43,964 nucleotides of DNA from Eubacteriales bacterium (GTDB lineage: Bacteria; Bacillota; Clostridia; Oscillospirales; JAAYXM01): assembly GCA_045614365.1 (NCBI GenBank), contig JAZLCV010000102.1, positions 1 through 43,964 of the forward strand, in the 5' to 3' direction. Below the pieces are notes generated by a model, which saw nothing but the letters and a program-made list of their open reading frames with translations, searched no databases and was not told where the DNA came from. Below, one piece after another: positions 15,214 through 28,185 of the stretch; the first letter of the stretch is position 1, and the number at the start of each line of letters is the position of its first letter. The position numbers and the translations under genes were made by a program.

Positions 15214-15250
15214 AACCGCAAAAGGGATGGTTTTCGTCCTTTTTGCGGTT
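15214..15250. terminator. Stem-loop after cysK (probable terminator; right arm overlaps REP-like element)
   Basis: AACCGCAAAAGGGATG..CGTCCTTTTTGCGGTT inverted repeat. Confidence 0.6.
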
Positions 15251-15271
15251 CGTCGTAAATGCCGCCCCTAC
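15244..15271 (-). repeat. REP-like GTAG palindrome, intergenic copy
   Basis: Minus strand GTAGGGGCGGCATTTACGACGAACCGCA; 26 positions identical to the copy at 21168-21196. Confidence 0.75.
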
Positions 15272-15317
15272 ACCCATTCCCTTTAATTTGCTTTGTTTGT
15301 GAAAAAATTAATTTTGC

Positions 15318-15346
15318 TTTATCTTCTGCGTGTTTTGTGGTATGAT
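15318..15346 (+). promoter_or_regulatory. Extended -10 promoter of pyk
   Basis: TTTATC-N17-TATGAT preceded by TG. Confidence 0.55.
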
Positions 15347-15393
15347 ATATTTGGTGAAGATTTTGATTATTCCAAGAAAGGAAGATTTGATAT

Positions 15394-20992: not shown

Positions 20993-23900
20993 TTATGACT
21001 TGCCCGCTACATAATCCAATATACGCTTGAGCAGCACTGCAACCTCGGCTCGTGTCGTGTAATCAGTTGGAGCGATAAGTCCGGATTTGCCGTTGACGAT
21101 ACCCGAACCGACAAGCGCAGAAACTGCTTCCTTTGCGTAAGGTGCGATGGTAGCGAAGTCCTCATTCTGCGGTTCGTCATAAATGCCGAACCCTACATTT
21201 AGTATCTGCAGTGCACGGTAGACGATTACCATCATATCCTGACGAGTGATGGAGTTGCGTGGTGCAAACTTGTTATCACCAATGCCGCCGATTATGCCAT
21301 TGTTTCGTGCTATTGCAAGCTCGGATGCATAATAATCATTCACCATAACATCTGCGAAGTTTTCCGTATTATCTGAGCTTAGCTTGAATGCACGCACCAG
21401 AAGCAGTGCAAAATCTGCGCGGGTGATATTTGATTCCGGATTGAACGTACTTGCAGTCATGCCCTTTATTATTCCATCTGCCGCAAGCGCGTTTATCGCA
21501 TCTGCTGCCCATGCGTGATTACCCAAATCCGTGAATTTCGGTTCGTCGGAACCACTGAACCCTACGTTGGGTTGGGTTGCAGCATCTTCGTTGCCGTTTT
21601 CATCGGTATCCGTTGTGTCACCAGTTGTGTCATGCGGTTTGTCATCCGGTGCGGCACCGCCGCCACCGCCTCCTCCACCGCCAGCGGCAGGTGTATCGGT
21701 GTTTCCTGCCTCCGGTGTTTCGGTTGTATCAGTTTTATCCTGAGATGAGCCACCCGTTGTCGAACCGTAGACAGTGACAGTAAAATACAGCGTTGATGTT
21801 CTGCCAAGCGAGTCGGTCGCATCAATTGCGACAAGGCTCTCTCCCACCTGGCTGCCATCCGGCTTCCATGTAAAGGTTGCCGTCTCTGCACTAAAGCTTG
21901 CGCCTCGCGGAAGTGTGCGTGCAGAGTAAGTAACTATACCGTCTTCTACCTGACTTTCCGCTCTTACTGTAAGCTTCAAAGAGCTTCCGGCAGATGATGT
22001 AATATTTCCCGGCTCGTCAAACTCAGGAGCATTGTCTTCTTCATACGACATCGGAATTGCAAAACGCGTTCCCTCATTGATGATATAATTGTATGTATCA
22101 TCCTCATAGCTGTCATATGAATCGACAAATGTTACATTACCAAAGCTCAGAATTGCCGTTTTTCCATCCTCAGAAATCTCAGCATCCTCTATTATGAATG
22201 CCGCATTGCCCGGAGAGTCGGTCTCTCCGACGAAAATACGTCCGGACAGACTTGTTTTTTCATCATTCATCATTTTAAGCAGAGCTTTACTTATGGGCTC
22301 ATCAAACTCGACCTGCGCTTTATTTACAATAGAAAGCCCCTTTGTATGCCACGTTACCTTACCGGTAAGAGCATCGGTCTGCTCATTATCCTCGTTTCCG
22401 ATAAGCGTTCCGTCGTGGAGATAGCTGTAAATGTTTTCAAGCTTACCGTCAACCGACTTAACCGTCCAGACTCCCGCAAAGCCGCAGAACAGGAAGCTGT
22501 AGCCTTCGGTATCGGTTCCGACGGTTGTATCGGCTATAGTGTATGTAATGTCCTTTCTTGTTGCGTACATTACATAATCAACTCTTCCGTCAATAAGCTC
22601 CACTCTGACCGCTGCTGCCTTGTCAGCGCCGAGATTTTCGCCATTTACCGGCACCATCTCAATGCGGTCGATGTTCTTTATATACGGAGTTTTGTTATAC
22701 GGCTCGAAAACAGTTGTATAAAGCGTATCAAGCTTTTCATCTGCCTTTGCCTTGCGGCGCACAAGCAAATACTCAATTCTGTTTATCACCTTATCCCAAT
22801 CATCTTTACGCGTAGGAACACTCTGCGCAAGCGTTACCTCATCTGCCTTCCAGTCGTTTGCGGTTGTAACCTTCAGATGAATATCCATAAGACTGCTATT
22901 ATTGCGCGACAACTTTCTCATATCTGAAATCTTATAGTCAACAGAGAAATTCATATCAGGATCATTGTCCTTGCGGATTTTCTCAAGCCAAGTATAACCC
23001 GAAGGATATTTCAGCGGAACATACTGATTAGAAGTATTAGTCCACGGGTCGTTTCCGAAACGCGCATCAGTTCCTGCATAAGTACCGATGTAATTGCCGT
23101 TTTCATCAACCTGATGTTCAATGCTGTCAAGCCCCGTTGTCTCCGCCACGGTATTACTCGATGCATGGAAGGAATAAATATGATCTTCCCCGCCGAGCAC
23201 CTTGAAGAAGTCTACACCGTAAGATATTTCATCGTCGTAGTCTATCATCATTACTGTTCTGCGATAATCATCAGCCGTCTGATAGGTTGTGCTTCCGTCA
23301 ACATCCATAAGGCGGACTCTTGTATCCTTGTTGTCAAAGTGCAGTGGCTTTGCCGGATCTTCGGGTTTTACCGAACTTGTTTCGTTTATGACAACCGTGT
23401 TGTGCGAAAGCGTAACATTCGTCCACTGATGACGGCTTGGATATGCACCTGTTCTTTCCGGGTATCCGTTGTCCGACGACATTGAAATTCCATATGCATC
23501 AATACCTATATTCAGGAAATCTCGGTGCATGTGCGATGTTGCTCCGCCAAAGTACATCCAGAAATCGCGCGTGGTGTCTTTTATTGTACTCGTTCCCAAA
23601 ACGTTATTATACAGCGCACCGGCGCGAAGCGATGCAAAGCCGTAGCCCGTCATCATAGAGCTTCTGTCATAATTATATTCACCAAAAGCATCTATTTCCT
23701 TTTCGATATCACTATAAAGGCTGTCGGGATTTTTCGTGAAGATATCGTAATGCAGATCTTCGAGTGCAAAGTTCTTACCCTTTACGGCAATCTCATAAAG
23801 AAGCTGGGCAAGCTGCGTCTTTGTCTTTTGGTAACCGCTTATCTTTTCTTCAAGCTCTGCCCTAACAGCCTCATCAACTGTCTTAAGACTTTCTTCAAGC

Positions 23901-26900
23901 TCTGCTGTATATATTGCAAGCTGCTTATAGCTTTCGGCAATAATATTTGTATCCGATGGCATAACACGGTATGTTCCCATCATTCCCTGGTCGCCTATTG
24001 ACTGCGTTCCACGATGCAGATCAATCATATCGTTATAGCAGGTAAGCATCGTTATATATTTCGGATTTCTCCAGAGGTTTTCCTTTTCAGTCAGCTCGCC
24101 CTTGTACAAGCCGAGCGTCGTAGCCACAGCAACGGTATCCTCAATCCAGCCGTAGTTGTAGGATGATGAGGATTCTGTTCCCTGACCGTCACGCGAAACC
24201 TGATTTACAATCTTATAAAGAAGCTCGCCACCGGTGTTGAAGGTTTTGCCAGCCGTTGATGTGTTCTGCTTGCTTTCCACGAACAACCAGTCTATCATCT
24301 CACGCGAATACGGTTCTCGGTCATATACAACAGCAGCATTTGCCACTGCCGCCTGATGCATACCAAAGTTTCCGTTTACATCTCCCGCCATCGCCGCACT
24401 GTATATCTCATAGATGAGGTCACGCTCGATATTATCACGTATGTTCTTGTTGGAGTTTTTGGGAAGCCTTGCTTCTCCCGTTACCTGATGCACTGCTATT
24501 CCGTAATACTCCCGTTCTTTTTCGGCAAGAAAGCTTTGTACCTCGGGGTCATCATACATCGGCCAGAACGCATCATATGCCGTTGAGAAGCTTATAGCAA
24601 AGTTTGCATCCCAGATATCATTTGATATTTTGCCGGAATTGTGTGAGCTTGACGAGAATGCATAACGCAGCACATTCCAGTTTACGGTTTCGCCGTTGCT
24701 GTTTTTCCACTCGTTTGCGCTATATTCGGGATACAGGTCTGCAAGGCGGTCAATCAGGACCGCGCCGATCTTTCCATACTTTTCTTCACCTGTGTAGACA
24801 TACGCAAGCTTCAAAGAATCAATCGCTTCAATAATGGCGTTTGCTCCTGCATGCCAGAATCCGCAATGGTTGTAGTATGGTATAAAAGGCCACAAATCTG
24901 AAATTGCATCGCTTGTTTCCCATGCACAGCCCGGAGCATATCCCCAACCATCATCAACACACCAGAGCATACCGCTCTTGACCTCATCATATCCTCCGAC
25001 GAGATTGTATATCTTATGGTCTGCTTTTCCGTCGCTGTCGAGGTCTGCATTATAGCGAAACGGGTCTATGCCGTTAAACTCTTTTCCTTCAGTATACAGG
25101 TCGGTATACATATCATTTTTAAGATACCCTTGGCCGTAGCCGTAGTATTTATACCAGTTCGTAAGCTCGGTTCCATATTGATCGAAAAATGCGGTTGTAC
25201 CTGTCGGATCCACCATCTCCAGCTTTTCGCAATCACATTCAAAATCATGATTTTCCGCAAAGTCAGCCTTGTGGTAAATCATATTATGATGGCGCAAAAG
25301 CGCAAGAGCACGGTCAAACACGCCGTCGTTTCCGAGCCCCAGCTCATAGAACGAGCCGAAATCATTTGACGGGAAAAGGCGCTTGCATTCCGGGCACTGT
25401 ATTTTCCACGGACGTGTCAGCGGTGATGTGATCCACGGATACCCTGACTCTGCAACCTTGACTCCGCAATAACGGCAGACATATGTGGATATTTCATCAC
25501 CACGGCGGCTGAGCTGAATAGAACGCGGAATGCCCTCTCCCGCAAGCAGATTCCATATTCCTTCCATACCAAGGGCTACGTATTTATCTGCCTTTTCAAC
25601 CGCAGCATCCTTTTCGTTCTTTGCCCAGGTATATTTTTTGATGTTTTCTCGAGCAATCGCAATGCGTTCGTCCGTATAATACGTACGGCCTGCCTTACCG
25701 TGCGTGACGGTAATTGTCGCCGATGCTTCATACGGCACGTCGTCAAGCGTCGTAGTAACCGAAACTGTATAAACTCCTTCTTCTGCATCGGAGCCTATCT
25801 CTGCCGTGAACGTACCATTCTCGCCTTCCTCAAAGCTTACGTTAGTCTGCTCTGCGTCATAGTTCCACTCGATGCTGTCCCAAGATATATCGCCTGCGAA
25901 GTCATAACCACCAAGAGATACTGCTTTTATGCCAAGTATGATGCTCTCCCGCTCGCCGGGGCGCATAACAAAGCTGTCTCCGGTTATCTCAATGCCTGCA
26001 AGCTCTGAATAATCGCGCACATTAACCTCTACCGTCTCTGACCAGCTCTGTCCCTTGCTCTCGCCCGTGTTGTCCGTAAGCGTCATTTTAACGTGTGCCG
26101 TACCTAATTCTTTTGCCGTAACCGTGCCATCAGCTGCAAGGTCTATATATTCCCCGCCGTCTGAAAGTTCATATACGATCGCATAGTCCTGTCCTACGCC
26201 TGTAAGCGACGGCATAATCTCGTGAGAAACGCCGTTTTTAAACAGAATTGATGCCGAAAGAGCAACACTTTCGCCTTTGTTTATTTCATAGCTTTCCTTC
26301 ATCGGAGTGAGCGCCTTTATTTCAGGTATGCTCTCTGCCGCGAAAAATGCAATCGAGCCATAAGCCTGTCCGTAATATGTGTTGTTCACATACTCCATCT
26401 CACCCGTCACCGGATTGAAAACCTGCAAAGTACGAGTCTGGCAATCAAACGTCAGCGTGTGCGTTCCCTCTTCGATATAAAACGTACGGAAGGTTTCCGG
26501 CAGAATGTTATTGGATGTTCCTTTGTTGTAAAAGCAGAAATCTCCTGCATATACTCCATCAAGATAAATATCCACGTCCTCTGCCGCTTTTATTCCGTTT
26601 CCTTTTCCCGAAATGGAAATCGAGTAATATCCCGAGCGCGGAATTTTAACCTCAAGAACGCCCTTTCCTGTTCTTCGCGGAGTTACGGTAAGCCCGTTAA
26701 GATTAAGATTTATCGTCCCCTTGCTTGTGAGATCCCACGAAACAAATCTCCATCCGTGTTCTTCGAGCGTTGCGGCATATACATCCGTTATCGGCTGATT
26801 CATAAAATCAATGATAACGTGCTTGTCGTTATCGGTATTGACAATTTCTATATCAGTGCTGCCCGTTACTGTTTTTCCGTTATACGCTGCTTCGGCGCAG

Positions 26901-28093
26901 AGCTTTATGCCGTCAACACCCGCAGGTACCGTTATGTACCACTCGCTATTATCTTCTATTCCGTCAACGATGTCGTTTCCGCACTCAAACCATACGCGGA
27001 CAGAGGGTTGCGTCTCAAACTCCGTAATAACCGTTCCGTTTCTGTCCCTGAACGTGAGCTTCACACGCCGCGTTGCATATGCCGGAATTCTGTTGCCGCC
27101 GTCAAGAGAAACATCGACCGTGTGTATAGATTCGTCAATAACGGTTATTGTTGCAGAGCCGGTCAGCTCCACTCCTTCAACAACTGCCGTAGCAGTAATT
27201 GTTGCAGTTCCCTCGCCAATTCCCGTCACGGAATTTCCGTCAATTGAAATAATCCCGTTATCTTCTGTCGTATATGTAACCTCAGCATCAACAACCGTAC
27301 CACTTGCGTCTTTTACCACGCTGGAAAGCGTTGCCACCTCATTTTTCTTTATCTGCTCCTTTGAGGTTTTTACAAGCACGCGCGGGGTAAGCGTAAGCGA
27401 TGCTACCGACAGAGTTCTCGTTTGCCCTGCCTTTCCTTGATTAAAAACAAGAACATATTCCTTTTCCGCACTCAGCGTAACATCCTTTGCCGATTTAATT
27501 GTCATTGCTTTCGTTGCTGCGGTTGACTGTTTTATCATTGCCGTTCCGACAAGAGACTCGGACGAGATTCCAAGATCTCCGAACGCAAGTCCGCCTGTTC
27601 TTACAGACGAGCTAACCGTTCCATATGTATCACCACTTGCAAATGTCTCGGCAAGTTTTCCCTCAAGCGGGGCAATATACATCTCTAATGCTTCCGAGCC
27701 GTACTTCTGATGTGAGGCCGTACCCGATATGCTATAAGTGGCAGTTTTCGGAACTCTTATTTTAAAAGCAATCCAGTTATTTGCCGCCTGACGGCTTGTC
27801 TGCAAATACGCAAACGCCGCGACTACAGCAGTTGTTGAAGATGATGCAGCACCTGTAATATGAGAGCCGAGATATGCCCAGTTGCGGTCTGTTCCGTAGC
27901 TTGTAAAATACTTTTCACCGGATGCCGATTCCAGCGGGACCAATGCCGCTGTCGAAACAACATCATTATGTCCGTCTATATGAAAATTATAGTTTACGGC
28001 ATCTGTTTCCGTTGCTCCTGCAAACAGAACTGTTGTAGGCAACAATGATATCAGCATGCATATGCTTAAGATTAACGATAATGTTCTTTTCAT
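20993..28093 (-). CDS. SLH-anchored multimodular heparinase II/III-like polysaccharide lyase (~2366 aa)
   Basis: Signal peptide from ATG 28093 (AGGAG RBS); CBM-like and Ig-like modules; CRYCG..CPEC; HMHRD..DNGYP..SHNTVVINE resembling the heparinase II/III C-terminal domain; putative Ig (LPRGASF..TFTWKP); poly-Gly linker; three SLH repeats (ITRADF, ITRQDM, TTRAEV). Confidence 0.8.
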   Translation of the reverse strand: MKRTLSLILSICMLISLLPTTVLFAGATETDAVNYNFHIDGHNDVVSTAALVPLESASGEKYFTSYGTDRNWAYLGSHITGAASSSTTAVVAAFAYLQTSRQAANNWIAFKIRVPKTATYSISGTASHQKYGSEALEMYIAPLEGKLAETFASGDTYGTVSSSVRTGGLAFGDLGISSESLVGTAMIKQSTAATKAMTIKSAKDVTLSAEKEYVLVFNQGKAGQTRTLSVASLTLTPRVLVKTSKEQIKKNEVATLSSVVKDASGTVVDAEVTYTTEDNGIISIDGNSVTGIGEGTATITATAVVEGVELTGSATITVIDESIHTVDVSLDGGNRIPAYATRRVKLTFRDRNGTVITEFETQPSVRVWFECGNDIVDGIEDNSEWYITVPAGVDGIKLCAEAAYNGKTVTGSTDIEIVNTDNDKHVIIDFMNQPITDVYAATLEEHGWRFVSWDLTSKGTINLNLNGLTVTPRRTGKGVLEVKIPRSGYYSISISGKGNGIKAAEDVDIYLDGVYAGDFCFYNKGTSNNILPETFRTFYIEEGTHTLTFDCQTRTLQVFNPVTGEMEYVNNTYYGQAYGSIAFFAAESIPEIKALTPMKESYEINKGESVALSASILFKNGVSHEIMPSLTGVGQDYAIVYELSDGGEYIDLAADGTVTAKELGTAHVKMTLTDNTGESKGQSWSETVEVNVRDYSELAGIEITGDSFVMRPGERESIILGIKAVSLGGYDFAGDISWDSIEWNYDAEQTNVSFEEGENGTFTAEIGSDAEEGVYTVSVTTTLDDVPYEASATITVTHGKAGRTYYTDERIAIARENIKKYTWAKNEKDAAVEKADKYVALGMEGIWNLLAGEGIPRSIQLSRRGDEISTYVCRYCGVKVAESGYPWITSPLTRPWKIQCPECKRLFPSNDFGSFYELGLGNDGVFDRALALLRHHNMIYHKADFAENHDFECDCEKLEMVDPTGTTAFFDQYGTELTNWYKYYGYGQGYLKNDMYTDLYTEGKEFNGIDPFRYNADLDSDGKADHKIYNLVGGYDEVKSGMLWCVDDGWGYAPGCAWETSDAISDLWPFIPYYNHCGFWHAGANAIIEAIDSLKLAYVYTGEEKYGKIGAVLIDRLADLYPEYSANEWKNSNGETVNWNVLRYAFSSSSHNSGKISNDIWDANFAISFSTAYDAFWPMYDDPEVQSFLAEKEREYYGIAVHQVTGEARLPKNSNKNIRDNIERDLIYEIYSAAMAGDVNGNFGMHQAAVANAAVVYDREPYSREMIDWLFVESKQNTSTAGKTFNTGGELLYKIVNQVSRDGQGTESSSSYNYGWIEDTVAVATTLGLYKGELTEKENLWRNPKYITMLTCYNDMIDLHRGTQSIGDQGMMGTYRVMPSDTNIIAESYKQLAIYTAELEESLKTVDEAVRAELEEKISGYQKTKTQLAQLLYEIAVKGKNFALEDLHYDIFTKNPDSLYSDIEKEIDAFGEYNYDRSSMMTGYGFASLRAGALYNNVLGTSTIKDTTRDFWMYFGGATSHMHRDFLNIGIDAYGISMSSDNGYPERTGAYPSRHQWTNVTLSHNTVVINETSSVKPEDPAKPLHFDNKDTRVRLMDVDGSTTYQTADDYRRTVMMIDYDDEISYGVDFFKVLGGEDHIYSFHASSNTVAETTGLDSIEHQVDENGNYIGTYAGTDARFGNDPWTNTSNQYVPLKYPSGYTWLEKIRKDNDPDMNFSVDYKISDMRKLSRNNSSLMDIHLKVTTANDWKADEVTLAQSVPTRKDDWDKVINRIEYLLVRRKAKADEKLDTLYTTVFEPYNKTPYIKNIDRIEMVPVNGENLGADKAAAVRVELIDGRVDYVMYATRKDITYTIADTTVGTDTEGYSFLFCGFAGVWTVKSVDGKLENIYSYLHDGTLIGNEDNEQTDALTGKVTWHTKGLSIVNKAQVEFDEPISKALLKMMNDEKTSLSGRIFVGETDSPGNAAFIIEDAEISEDGKTAILSFGNVTFVDSYDSYEDDTYNYIINEGTRFAIPMSYEEDNAPEFDEPGNITSSAGSSLKLTVRAESQVEDGIVTYSARTLPRGASFSAETATFTWKPDGSQVGESLVAIDATDSLGRTSTLYFTVTVYGSTTGGSSQDKTDTTETPEAGNTDTPAAGGGGGGGGGAAPDDKPHDTTGDTTDTDENGNEDAATQPNVGFSGSDEPKFTDLGNHAWAADAINALAADGIIKGMTASTFNPESNITRADFALLLVRAFKLSSDNTENFADVMVNDYYASELAIARNNGIIGGIGDNKFAPRNSITRQDMMVIVYRALQILNVGFGIYDEPQNEDFATIAPYAKEAVSALVGSGIVNGKSGLIAPTDYTTRAEVAVLLKRILDYVAGKS
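21168..21196 (-). repeat. REP-like GTAG palindrome in-frame within SLH gene (encodes VGFGIYDEP)
   Basis: GTAG-GGTTCG-GCATTTATGA-CGAACC-GCA; lies between SLH2 and SLH3. Confidence 0.75.
21539..21565 (-). repeat. REP-like GTAG palindrome in-frame within SLH gene (encodes VGFSGSDEP)
   Basis: GTAG-GGTTC-AGTGGTTCCGAC-GAACC-G; 21/27 identical to 21170-21196; immediately before SLH1. Confidence 0.65.
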
Positions 28094-28144
28094 AAAATTT
28101 CTCCTTATAAACAGCGTTTGTGATCTTTCAGCGAACCTCAGGAT

Positions 28145-28185
28145 GAAATGTGGGAGAATGAACACCGTCCATCCTCCCCCATTCC
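28145..28185 (-). other. Intergenic RNA stem-loop between the two large surface-protein genes
   Basis: 18-bp stem with three G-U pairs that form only in the minus-strand transcript; no U tract. Confidence 0.65.

Follow-up and report, generated by a model that had tools for sequence, protein, structure and literature searches.

Repetitive extragenic palindromes (REPs) tagged by GTAG or CGTC have been described with stems of 5-13 bp and loops of 2-20 nt, and in several species some of them lie wholly within open reading frames (ORFs), where they contribute a few residues without shifting the frame; the same survey, which covers mostly Proteobacteria, Opitutus, Thauera and others and in whose text the words 'Firmicutes' and 'Clostridi' do not occur, also describes the association of REPs with RAYT genes and argues that inserts in the flexible linkers or loops of modular proteins are tolerated and may be neutral (Di Nocera, De Gregorio and Rocco 2013, PMC3733652). 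The genes of tnpAREP subclass 2.4 (equivalent to RAYT group 4) themselves often hold in-frame REPs between HuH and Y, and in the REPs of this subclass the stem that follows GT[AG]G opens with G-C pairs (Quentin et al. 2018, PMC6006769). Here we analyze a 43,964-nt contig of an uncultured Eubacteriales bacterium of the order Oscillospirales (GenBank JAZLCV010000102.1, assembly GCA_045614365.1; hereinafter the window, in its full length), in which a gene for a giant surface protein contains two 27-nt units, A and B, each with a GTAG head followed by a palindrome, in the linkers of its S-layer homology (SLH) domains. Our analysis supports the view that both units belong to a GTAG-headed REP family of this Oscillospiraceae genus and are copies of it translated in frame; in sister genomes the family accompanies RAYT/TnpAREP-like HUH-Y1 genes.

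The host ORF (2390 aa; 20993-28165, on the minus strand like all its features given here) codes for a heparinase-II/III-like, SLH-anchored protein with Hepar_II_III_C and He_PIG domains and, at its C-terminus, three SLH domains, whose PF00395 matches sum to 101 bits and qualify it as an SLH anchor: SLH1 (21407-21538; PF00395 positions 1-44, 59.5 bits), SLH2 (profile-matched part 21233-21334, PF00395 positions 11-43) and SLH3 (21038-21160). Judging from the reading frame, translation likely starts at residue 25, a Met (~28093) that precedes a signal-peptide-like stretch. Unit A (GTAGGGTTCAGTGGTTCCGACGAACCG; 21539-21565) encodes VGFSGSDEP and ends one residue ahead of the Pfam SLH1 match, while unit B (GTAGGGTTCGGCATTTATGACGAACCG; 21170-21196) encodes VGFGIYDEP within the SLH2-SLH3 linker; the two share strand and frame. 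The number, length, orientation, position and peptides of the units are as an earlier note on this DNA had described them. Solved SLH domains align from the first residue past unit A and end just short of unit B. Both the pre-SLH1 and the SLH2-SLH3 linkers are non-globular, and nine extra or replaced residues are tolerated there.

The units have the form of a REP of ~26-27 nt, namely GTAG, a stem starting with GG, a short loop, a complementary arm ending in CC and then a G. Read in the frame GTA-GGG, this form yields a peptide V-G-...-x-P in which residues encoded by the 5' arm and the 3' arm are paired by complementarity (F/E, E/L, D/V or N/V). Units A and B, as well as a degenerate copy outside the gene (15246-15271), start with GTAG followed by GG. 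The stem-loop is present in unit B (6+2 bp), which as single-stranded DNA forms a stable hairpin of the expected shape (-7.5 kcal/mol, z -3.9) and matches the covariance model described below with 37.7 bits; it is marginal in unit A, where the five outer pairs GGTTC/GAACC remain and the inner stem has decayed, and lost in the degenerate copy. Both units depart from the classical REP in lying within the 2390-aa ORF and not between genes. The pattern GTAGGG-N12-GACGAACCG matches twice in the window against 0.01 matches expected from shuffles. Given the two peptides, the probability that all six flanking codons are equal is 0.0011 under the codon usage of the source genome, a low value because GGG and GTA are minority codons there, making up 9% of those for Gly and 24% of those for Val. 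Rfam has no match in the window at gathering score.

We then followed the units through the source genome (G000; 2.11 Mb in 212 contigs, 81.65% complete, with the window on contig C102) and a genus collection of 19 genomes of uncultured Oscillospiraceae, G000 included, all of them metagenome-assembled genomes (MAGs). G000 contains 131 SLH-domain matches, and 48 of its open frames, mostly 2000-3000 aa long, match the SLH anchor of the window; sister genomes have up to 82 such matches each. The pattern GTAGGG-N10-14-GACGAACCG recovers seven copies in G000, of which five are in SLH proteins and two in non-coding DNA, and further copies thus exist in both settings that the earlier note had wished to see counted. 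The REP type that we call T1 (GTAGGGTTCGG..CGACGAACC) is present in non-coding DNA of G000 at C205:3294 and C207:39863. The hexamer GTAGGG is strongly under-represented in G000 (176 sites on both strands versus 771 for the reversed word GGGATG); 12 of the 176 sites (6.8%) directly precede a perfect stem of at least 6 bp, as against 1.0-1.7% for control heads. Long frames hold 71 in-frame GTAGGG sites, ten of them with a hairpin, and nine of these ten are SLH linkers. Some of the linkers encode peptides unlike those of the window from stems of the same design, such as VGEGLRALP (C125; stem GGGAGGG/CCCTCCC) and, before SLH1, VGEGVPALR (C142; stem GGAGGG/CCCTCC).

In an alignment of 43 G000 anchors the commonest SLH2-3 linker is V[GE]FG[IV]YDEP, and the window's pre-SLH1 linker is one variant among several. 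A looser search retrieved additional SLH2-3 linkers with stem-breaking variants, e.g., GTAGAGTTC (VEF) and GTAGTGTTC (VVF). Seven of 31 SLH2-3 linkers tallied in G000 carry an intact GTAGGG hairpin, eight are T1-derived with a broken stem, four contain an 84-nt insert and 12 are of other kinds; among 32 pre-SLH1 linkers, two are of the REP type (that of the window and that of C142), nine have a different perfect hairpin and 21 are other. Of the 15 SLH2-3 linkers of G000 that are intact or derive from T1, eight thus have palindrome-breaking changes, yet they stand beside compensated variants and extragenic copies, and the combination of findings by which the earlier note would have given up its proposal is not what we observe.

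The T1 pattern recurs in 9 of the 19 genus genomes, that is, in the non-coding DNA of G000 and in eight others, and falls into two classes, a 26-nt coding form and a 27-nt non-coding form (GTAGGGTTCGGCGCTTGCCGACGAACC). One sister genome (G004) has three non-coding T1 copies, yet no match to the SLH anchor of the window at E<=1e-20. Around the non-coding T1 copies, further GTAGGG-hairpins with different stems are clustered and point either way. We derived a covariance model from 29 distinct units; the model, with 150 candidates scored per genome so that all counts are lower bounds, found at least 136 matches in G013, at least 58 in G007, at least 40 in G004, at least 33 in G008, at least 31 in G011, at least 26 in G001, at least 20 in G015 and at least 18 in G000; the lower bounds for the other 11 genomes are 0-7 each. 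The family is accordingly repeated, extragenic, clustered and present in both orientations for the genus as a whole, and its copy number in G000 is low.

In G013, the genome with the highest of these counts, the clusters hold alternating unit types, and in 40 stretches around its top-scoring matches we located 64 units. SLH2-3 linkers account for 19 of them and DNA devoid of any frame of 150 aa or more for 37; four lie in other sense frames, two antisense in long frames and two in a RAYT-like ORF; five of the units not assigned to SLH proteins have SLH-type flanks at contig ends. A single 26-mer (GTAGGGGACGGCGTCCTCGACGTCCC) contributes 19 copies to SLH2-3 linkers and another 19 to DNA without a frame of at least 150 aa, besides one in the RAYT-like ORF and three in other frames. 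Linkers of relatives that read VGDGVLDVP (stem GGGACG/CGTCCC) and VGNGGSDVP (stem GGAACG/CGTTCC) are likewise built of GTAGGG and a palindrome. As a separate observation, one G013 anchor (L012/L199, G013:C95) has an in-frame TAA right before its REP-coded linker (..TGMN*LNVGDGVLDVPQ..) and may be broken or split at this point.

The same units occur inside candidate transposase genes. ORFs of 163-183 aa in sister genomes have REP_Tyr_transpos (NF047646) as their best NCBIfam match, at 66-78 bits against a cut-off of 80, and score 25-36 bits with PF01797 and 17-31 bits with the IS200 model. These RAYT-like ORFs, which are distinct from IS200-type loci, were found in G001, G004, G007, G008, G013, G014 and G016. 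All ten that we inspected contain two in-frame GTAGG hairpins, a sense copy past the first strand and an antisense copy between the HxH motif and the region of the catalytic Tyr. The first six stem pairs are equal between the sense and antisense copies in seven of the ten genes, and in the other three the copies differ by 1-2 pairs, with compensation where the stems are perfect. In the G001 gene (contig C38), VGFGVYDEP is encoded by GTAGGGTTCGGCGTTTACGACGAACCG (reading ...GKIVGFGVYDEPKMT...), a unit of the same type as those of the window, and the antisense copy of the G013 gene is identical to the G013 SLH2-3 linker unit at 26 of 26 positions. The earlier note had proposed a link to RAYT enzymes, and it holds through these sister genes, although no such gene was found in G000 itself. 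The cognate genes are these weaker NF047646-like ORFs; the loci with strong PF01797 matches (L064-L071), which we had also considered for this role, look IS200-type, with end hairpins of their own and a GTAGGG hairpin nearby in one of eight (L068). It may be added that the inverted REP pair within the RAYT-like ORFs (L072-L084) has its members ~145-190 nt apart and encloses the HxH motif.

The stems of the family covary. SLH linkers, RAYT-like genes and intergenic DNA together supplied 29 distinct units of 26 nt, which we aligned without gaps against a structure of GTAG, nine pairs and a 4-nt loop. Seven of the nine pairs have changed on both sides; the number of doubly changed cells (52 versus 14.5 in shuffles) and the covariation score (0.531 versus 0.165) were each reached by none of 500 shuffles. 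Sliding the 3' partner by 1-3 columns lowers the paired fraction from 89%, a figure inflated by construction because rows were pre-selected for at least five outer pairs, to 25-52%. Columns 1-6 are invariant, and the pairs 7-24, 8-23 and 9-22, whose diversity is unaffected by the pre-selection, show diverse pair types without a single unpaired cell. The tag is thus fixed while the stem varies with compensation, as in GTAG-type REPs. The effect reaches the protein: at the pre-SLH1 place the loop GGCGGTTCCGAC is constant while the stem triplets are TTC/GAA in the window, GAC/GTC in G001 and AAC/GTT in G011, and the peptide pairs F..E, D..V and N..V follow because these triplets base-pair. A comparison of synonymous-site conservation between unit and flanks (0.88 versus 0.52) was circular, its six sequences having been picked by the unit's own peptide, and was not used.

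Within SLH proteins the units keep to two places. We collected 80 related anchors from public Oscillospiraceae, Eubacteriales or Clostridia MAGs by means of six peptide patterns and judged positions from the tblastn match, with a check of the translation for five loci. The covariance model gave 58 matches in them, 57 of these on the sense strand: 36 loci matched at the SLH2-3 linker and 18 loci (20 matches) before SLH1, with one partial antisense match and one downstream match besides, and there was no match inside the SLH domain bodies of these anchors. Two Oscillospiraceae MAG anchors (L214 and L178) each have a tandem of two REP-coded [ST]TD-VGxGxxDxP-Q modules in the acidic stretch before SLH1, those of L178 being one intact and one decayed. 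The unit is present at the orthologous position in one sister species: in the ortholog from G001, with 79% identity across 491 aa upstream, the pre-SLH1 place holds an intact REP (GTAGGGTTCGGCGTTCACGACGAACCG, -8.2 kcal/mol), and unit A of the window is therefore a decayed orthologous copy.

On this basis we consider it likely that REP copies became fixed in tolerant linkers and were carried further by the anchor cassette, and that most of those in G000 are by now in decay. A REP would first have entered a linker by single-strand transposition of the RAYT type or by conversion from another REP, and duplication and gene conversion over short tracts would then have brought it to some 40 paralogous anchors; most coding copies have probably traveled with the paralogous SLH anchor cassette and not arisen by separate insertions. 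The best-matching partner of the window's anchor switches every 50-100 nt along the whole anchor with no focus on the units, as expected if paralogs convert one another pervasively over short tracts. The copies of G000, where we found no RAYT-like gene, are probably inert at present and decaying. The central proposal of the earlier note, that a GTAG REP family has colonized domain linkers as in-frame peptide cassettes, is thus upheld by the further copies, the covarying stems and the intergenic and RAYT-internal members of sister genomes. Its suggestion that the units mark or promote the shuffling of SLH modules finds no support, the mosaicism running along the whole anchor.

Several points weigh against this interpretation. 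G000 yielded no Y1_Tnp or RAYT-like gene in searches with PF01797, NF047646 and, by tblastn, seven RAYT-like proteins of the genus (assembly 81.65% complete), and only about six units lie outside long frames there. The palindrome that the earlier note had ascribed to both units is borne out for unit B, but the minimum-energy fold of unit A differs from the palindrome and is no better than shuffles (-3.6 kcal/mol, z 0.13). The 43 aligned G000 anchors show no clean 27-nt indel and no clean 27-nt presence/absence at either linker. In the ortholog of G002 (upstream identity 72%), both places are filled by linkers that are no REPs but similar in length, so that presence and absence differ by replacement and not by a clean indel; the orthologous comparison that the earlier note had called for finds a REP in G001 and none in G002. 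The SLH2-3 linker of Sap from Bacillus anthracis is of similar length, with no extra residues in the window's protein, and SbsB has LDVGN at the equivalent linker, relative to which the window's protein has five extra residues. With no clean indel and with linkers of similar length elsewhere, the actual insertion event is one that we infer and have not seen. The sampling has its limits as well: the per-genome counts are lower bounds only, the aligned rows were pre-selected as stated, and one of the six collecting peptides (YDEPQNED) favors the SLH2-3 linker type.

A stronger version of the REP interpretation would make the linker copies live substrates, which a resident RAYT-like enzyme recognizes and re-types such that their stems follow its internal REPs, with the hairpins, held in paired form by compensation, serving as single-strand recombination joints. 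The linker stems do match the internal REPs of the resident enzyme in G013, G001 and G008. If this were true, a domesticated HUH-nuclease system would act on coding DNA, giant surface proteins would exchange or renew their SLH anchors by it, and amino-acid pairs would covary solely because their codons must base-pair. We regard this version as doubtful.

Stem-loops at SLH boundaries might instead be kept for a role in DNA or mRNA, such as a translational pause ahead of domain folding, mRNA processing or a recombination joint, which would amount to co-option of a REP and is compatible with a REP origin. The constancy of the loop GGCGGTTCCGAC while stem triplets switch with compensation at one site would fit such selection, as would the 57 of 58 model matches on the sense strand and the presence of an unrelated 11-bp hairpin (GTGAAACGGAT-N3-ATCCGTTTCAC) with three compensated variants at the pre-SLH1 boundary of 9 of 32 anchors. 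However, many copies have decayed: among the 15 SLH2-3 linkers of G000 counted above as intact or derived from T1, eight have a broken stem, and unit A does not fold. Moreover, 12 of 31 SLH2-3 and 21 of 32 pre-SLH1 linkers in G000 have no such hairpin; the sense-strand bias is explained by descent together with the TAG stop in one frame. Templated repair within quasi-palindromes can also yield compensated changes without selection. A selected hairpin is hence an unlikely explanation of the units.

The unrelated hairpin deserves description in its own right. With a perfect 11-bp stem it codes in frame for SGETDxIRFT, its innermost pair has three compensated variants (GAT/ATC, GAC/GTC and GAG/CTC), and all nine copies are confined to the pre-SLH1 linker (G000, outside the window; e.g., C130:2651, C53:6697, C182:8529, C18:6514 and C174:11093). 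It is preceded by ..CGTC-GG, which by its letters recalls the CGTC tag of the other REP super-family.

Far less probable is an explanation from the protein alone, whereby VG....DEP is the conserved linker of a lineage-specific SLH anchor, the palindrome a by-product of codons and the identity between copies a result of recent paralogy. The unit does sit at the equivalent place in many paralogs whose whole anchors are 70-80% identical; the divergence is graded, with the stem-breaking variants GTAGAGTTC and GTAGTGTTC; there is no clean indel, the linker of the G002 ortholog having the same length; and SbsB has LDVGN at the equivalent linker. A protein linker, however, does not account for identical 26-mers outside long ORFs and within RAYT-like genes, for the same units in G004, which has no anchor match, for the unrelated peptides VGEGLRALP, VGDGVLDVP and VGNGGSDVP all being encoded by GTAGGG and a palindrome with compensated stems, or for a codon coincidence with a probability of 0.0011. 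We had at first taken the unit for a plain SLH linker that paralogs conserve and whose palindrome is incidental; this reading was dropped on the extragenic copies, the RAYT-internal copies and the covariation. That apparent in-frame copies were created by mis-joined repeats in a fragmented MAG, as 212 contigs and the many sister-genome REP matches near contig ends might suggest, is scarcely credible, because units A and B lie deep within an uninterrupted 7.2-kb frame on a 44-kb contig and the arrangement recurs in dozens of independent assemblies.

The degenerate copy outside the gene (26 nt; 15246-15271, minus strand) lies between a gene for a pyridoxal-phosphate (PLP) enzyme and that for pyruvate kinase. 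It is identical to unit B in 24 of 27 aligned columns (two substitutions and one gap), but with an altered 5' arm its palindrome is gone and it forms no hairpin (z about 0); the intergenic near-identical copy reported by the earlier note thus exists, in a decayed state. Its 3' end is overlapped by an inverted repeat (15216-15248; 11 of 12 positions pair around a 9-nt loop) that is homologous to a hairpin at the equivalent place in G018, and a simple promoter and terminator scan around the copy, the inverted repeat included, called nothing. The REP-like 26-mer is absent from the syntenic spacer of all five sister genomes examined (G018, G009, G001, G011 and G003), of which the G003 version carries a larger insert. 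In the same spacer, the promoter-proximal ~110 nt upstream of pyruvate kinase (15290-15393; ttgtgaaaaa.ttaattttgctttatcttc..tatgatatattt..ggaaaggaag) are kept across five species while the remaining spacer is not.

Two other repeats were noticed near members of the family. The 84-nt in-frame insert (SEAERNVGAAMNDSPVDYQNRDVTEPGEM) of the SLH2-3 linker in four G000 paralogs (C154:15555-15716, C207:31749-31910, C211:8156-8315 and C174:11454-11611) shows clean presence/absence relative to C31 and C24; a ~90-nt version is intergenic beside REPs in G004 (L047, G004:C19), and the insert is a low-copy repeat of the genus (14 copies in G015, nine in G011 and six in G000). A perfect, conserved hairpin (TATAGCGGAGAG-N6-CTCTCCGCTATAATA), with no Rfam match (three leader loci searched at E<=1), lies between the stop of a gene and the ribosome-binding site of a giant gene at six loci of G000 (C205:3224-3321, C207:39863-39961, C116:10574-10651, C211:15477-15556, C16:15841-15904 and C152:9783-9831). 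In two of the six (C205 and C207) a T1-type REP, antisense to the gene, stands between this hairpin and the start codon.

With these findings, the range of in-frame colonization by REPs comes to include SLH cell-wall anchors and uncultured Clostridia of the gut (Oscillospiraceae MAGs), and a natural protein shows clearly how DNA complementarity can dictate residues (F/E, E/L, D/V and N/V). One REP is found intergenically, within RAYT-like genes and in the linkers of coding sequence, with intact, compensated and decayed copies side by side; the system is therefore a tractable test bed that could address RAYT-type action on intragenic REPs and whether coding DNA maintains its hairpins or only tolerates them. 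Annotators should note that linker motifs of the form 'VG...P', and short 'hypothetical proteins' like these, derive from repeats.

Compared with Rickettsia palindromic elements (RPEs), the family is alike in that palindromic repeats lie in frame in apparently functional ORFs and add surface peptide cassettes; RPEs, however, have a CGTC tag and no dedicated transposase, and RPE-1 is described as a longer insertion (PMC3733652), whereas the units here are GTAG-tagged, 26-27 nt long and go with RAYT-like genes. The window's units lack the CGTC tag and are not members of the RPEs. RPE-1 is also much longer than units of 26-27 nt. The REPIN/RAYT system, in which two inverted REPs form a unit linked to a RAYT (PMC3337134), is resembled by the inverted pair in the sister RAYT-like ORFs, but here the pair lies inside the RAYT-like coding sequence, and the SLH copies are single and of one orientation, with a low copy number in G000. 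The sister RAYT-like ORFs resemble subclass 2.4 in that all ten, none of them from G000, hold an in-frame REP between HxH and Tyr and in that the REP stems open with G-C pairs, a likeness in features and not an assignment to the subclass, their best profile score being below its cut-off; of their additional sense copy past the first strand and of the matched stems there is no mention in the passages of that study consulted (PMC6006769). With the intragenic REPs of the broad survey they share an unpaired GTAG beside a short palindrome, in frame within ORFs; in contrast to that survey, where genes for replicating and repairing DNA predominate and sites are single and scattered (PMC3733652), the hosts here are SLH cell-wall anchors of giant surface proteins, and two fixed linker positions are occupied across dozens of paralogs in several species with different stem types per site. 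A text search of one literature library found no publication combining 'S-layer homology' with 'repetitive extragenic palindrom'. In-frame GTAG REPs and REPs inside tnpAREP genes have already been published, and the phenomenon is known in kind; what is new are the lineage, the host protein family, the fixed occupancy of two sites across dozens of paralogs and the occurrence of several stem types at one site.

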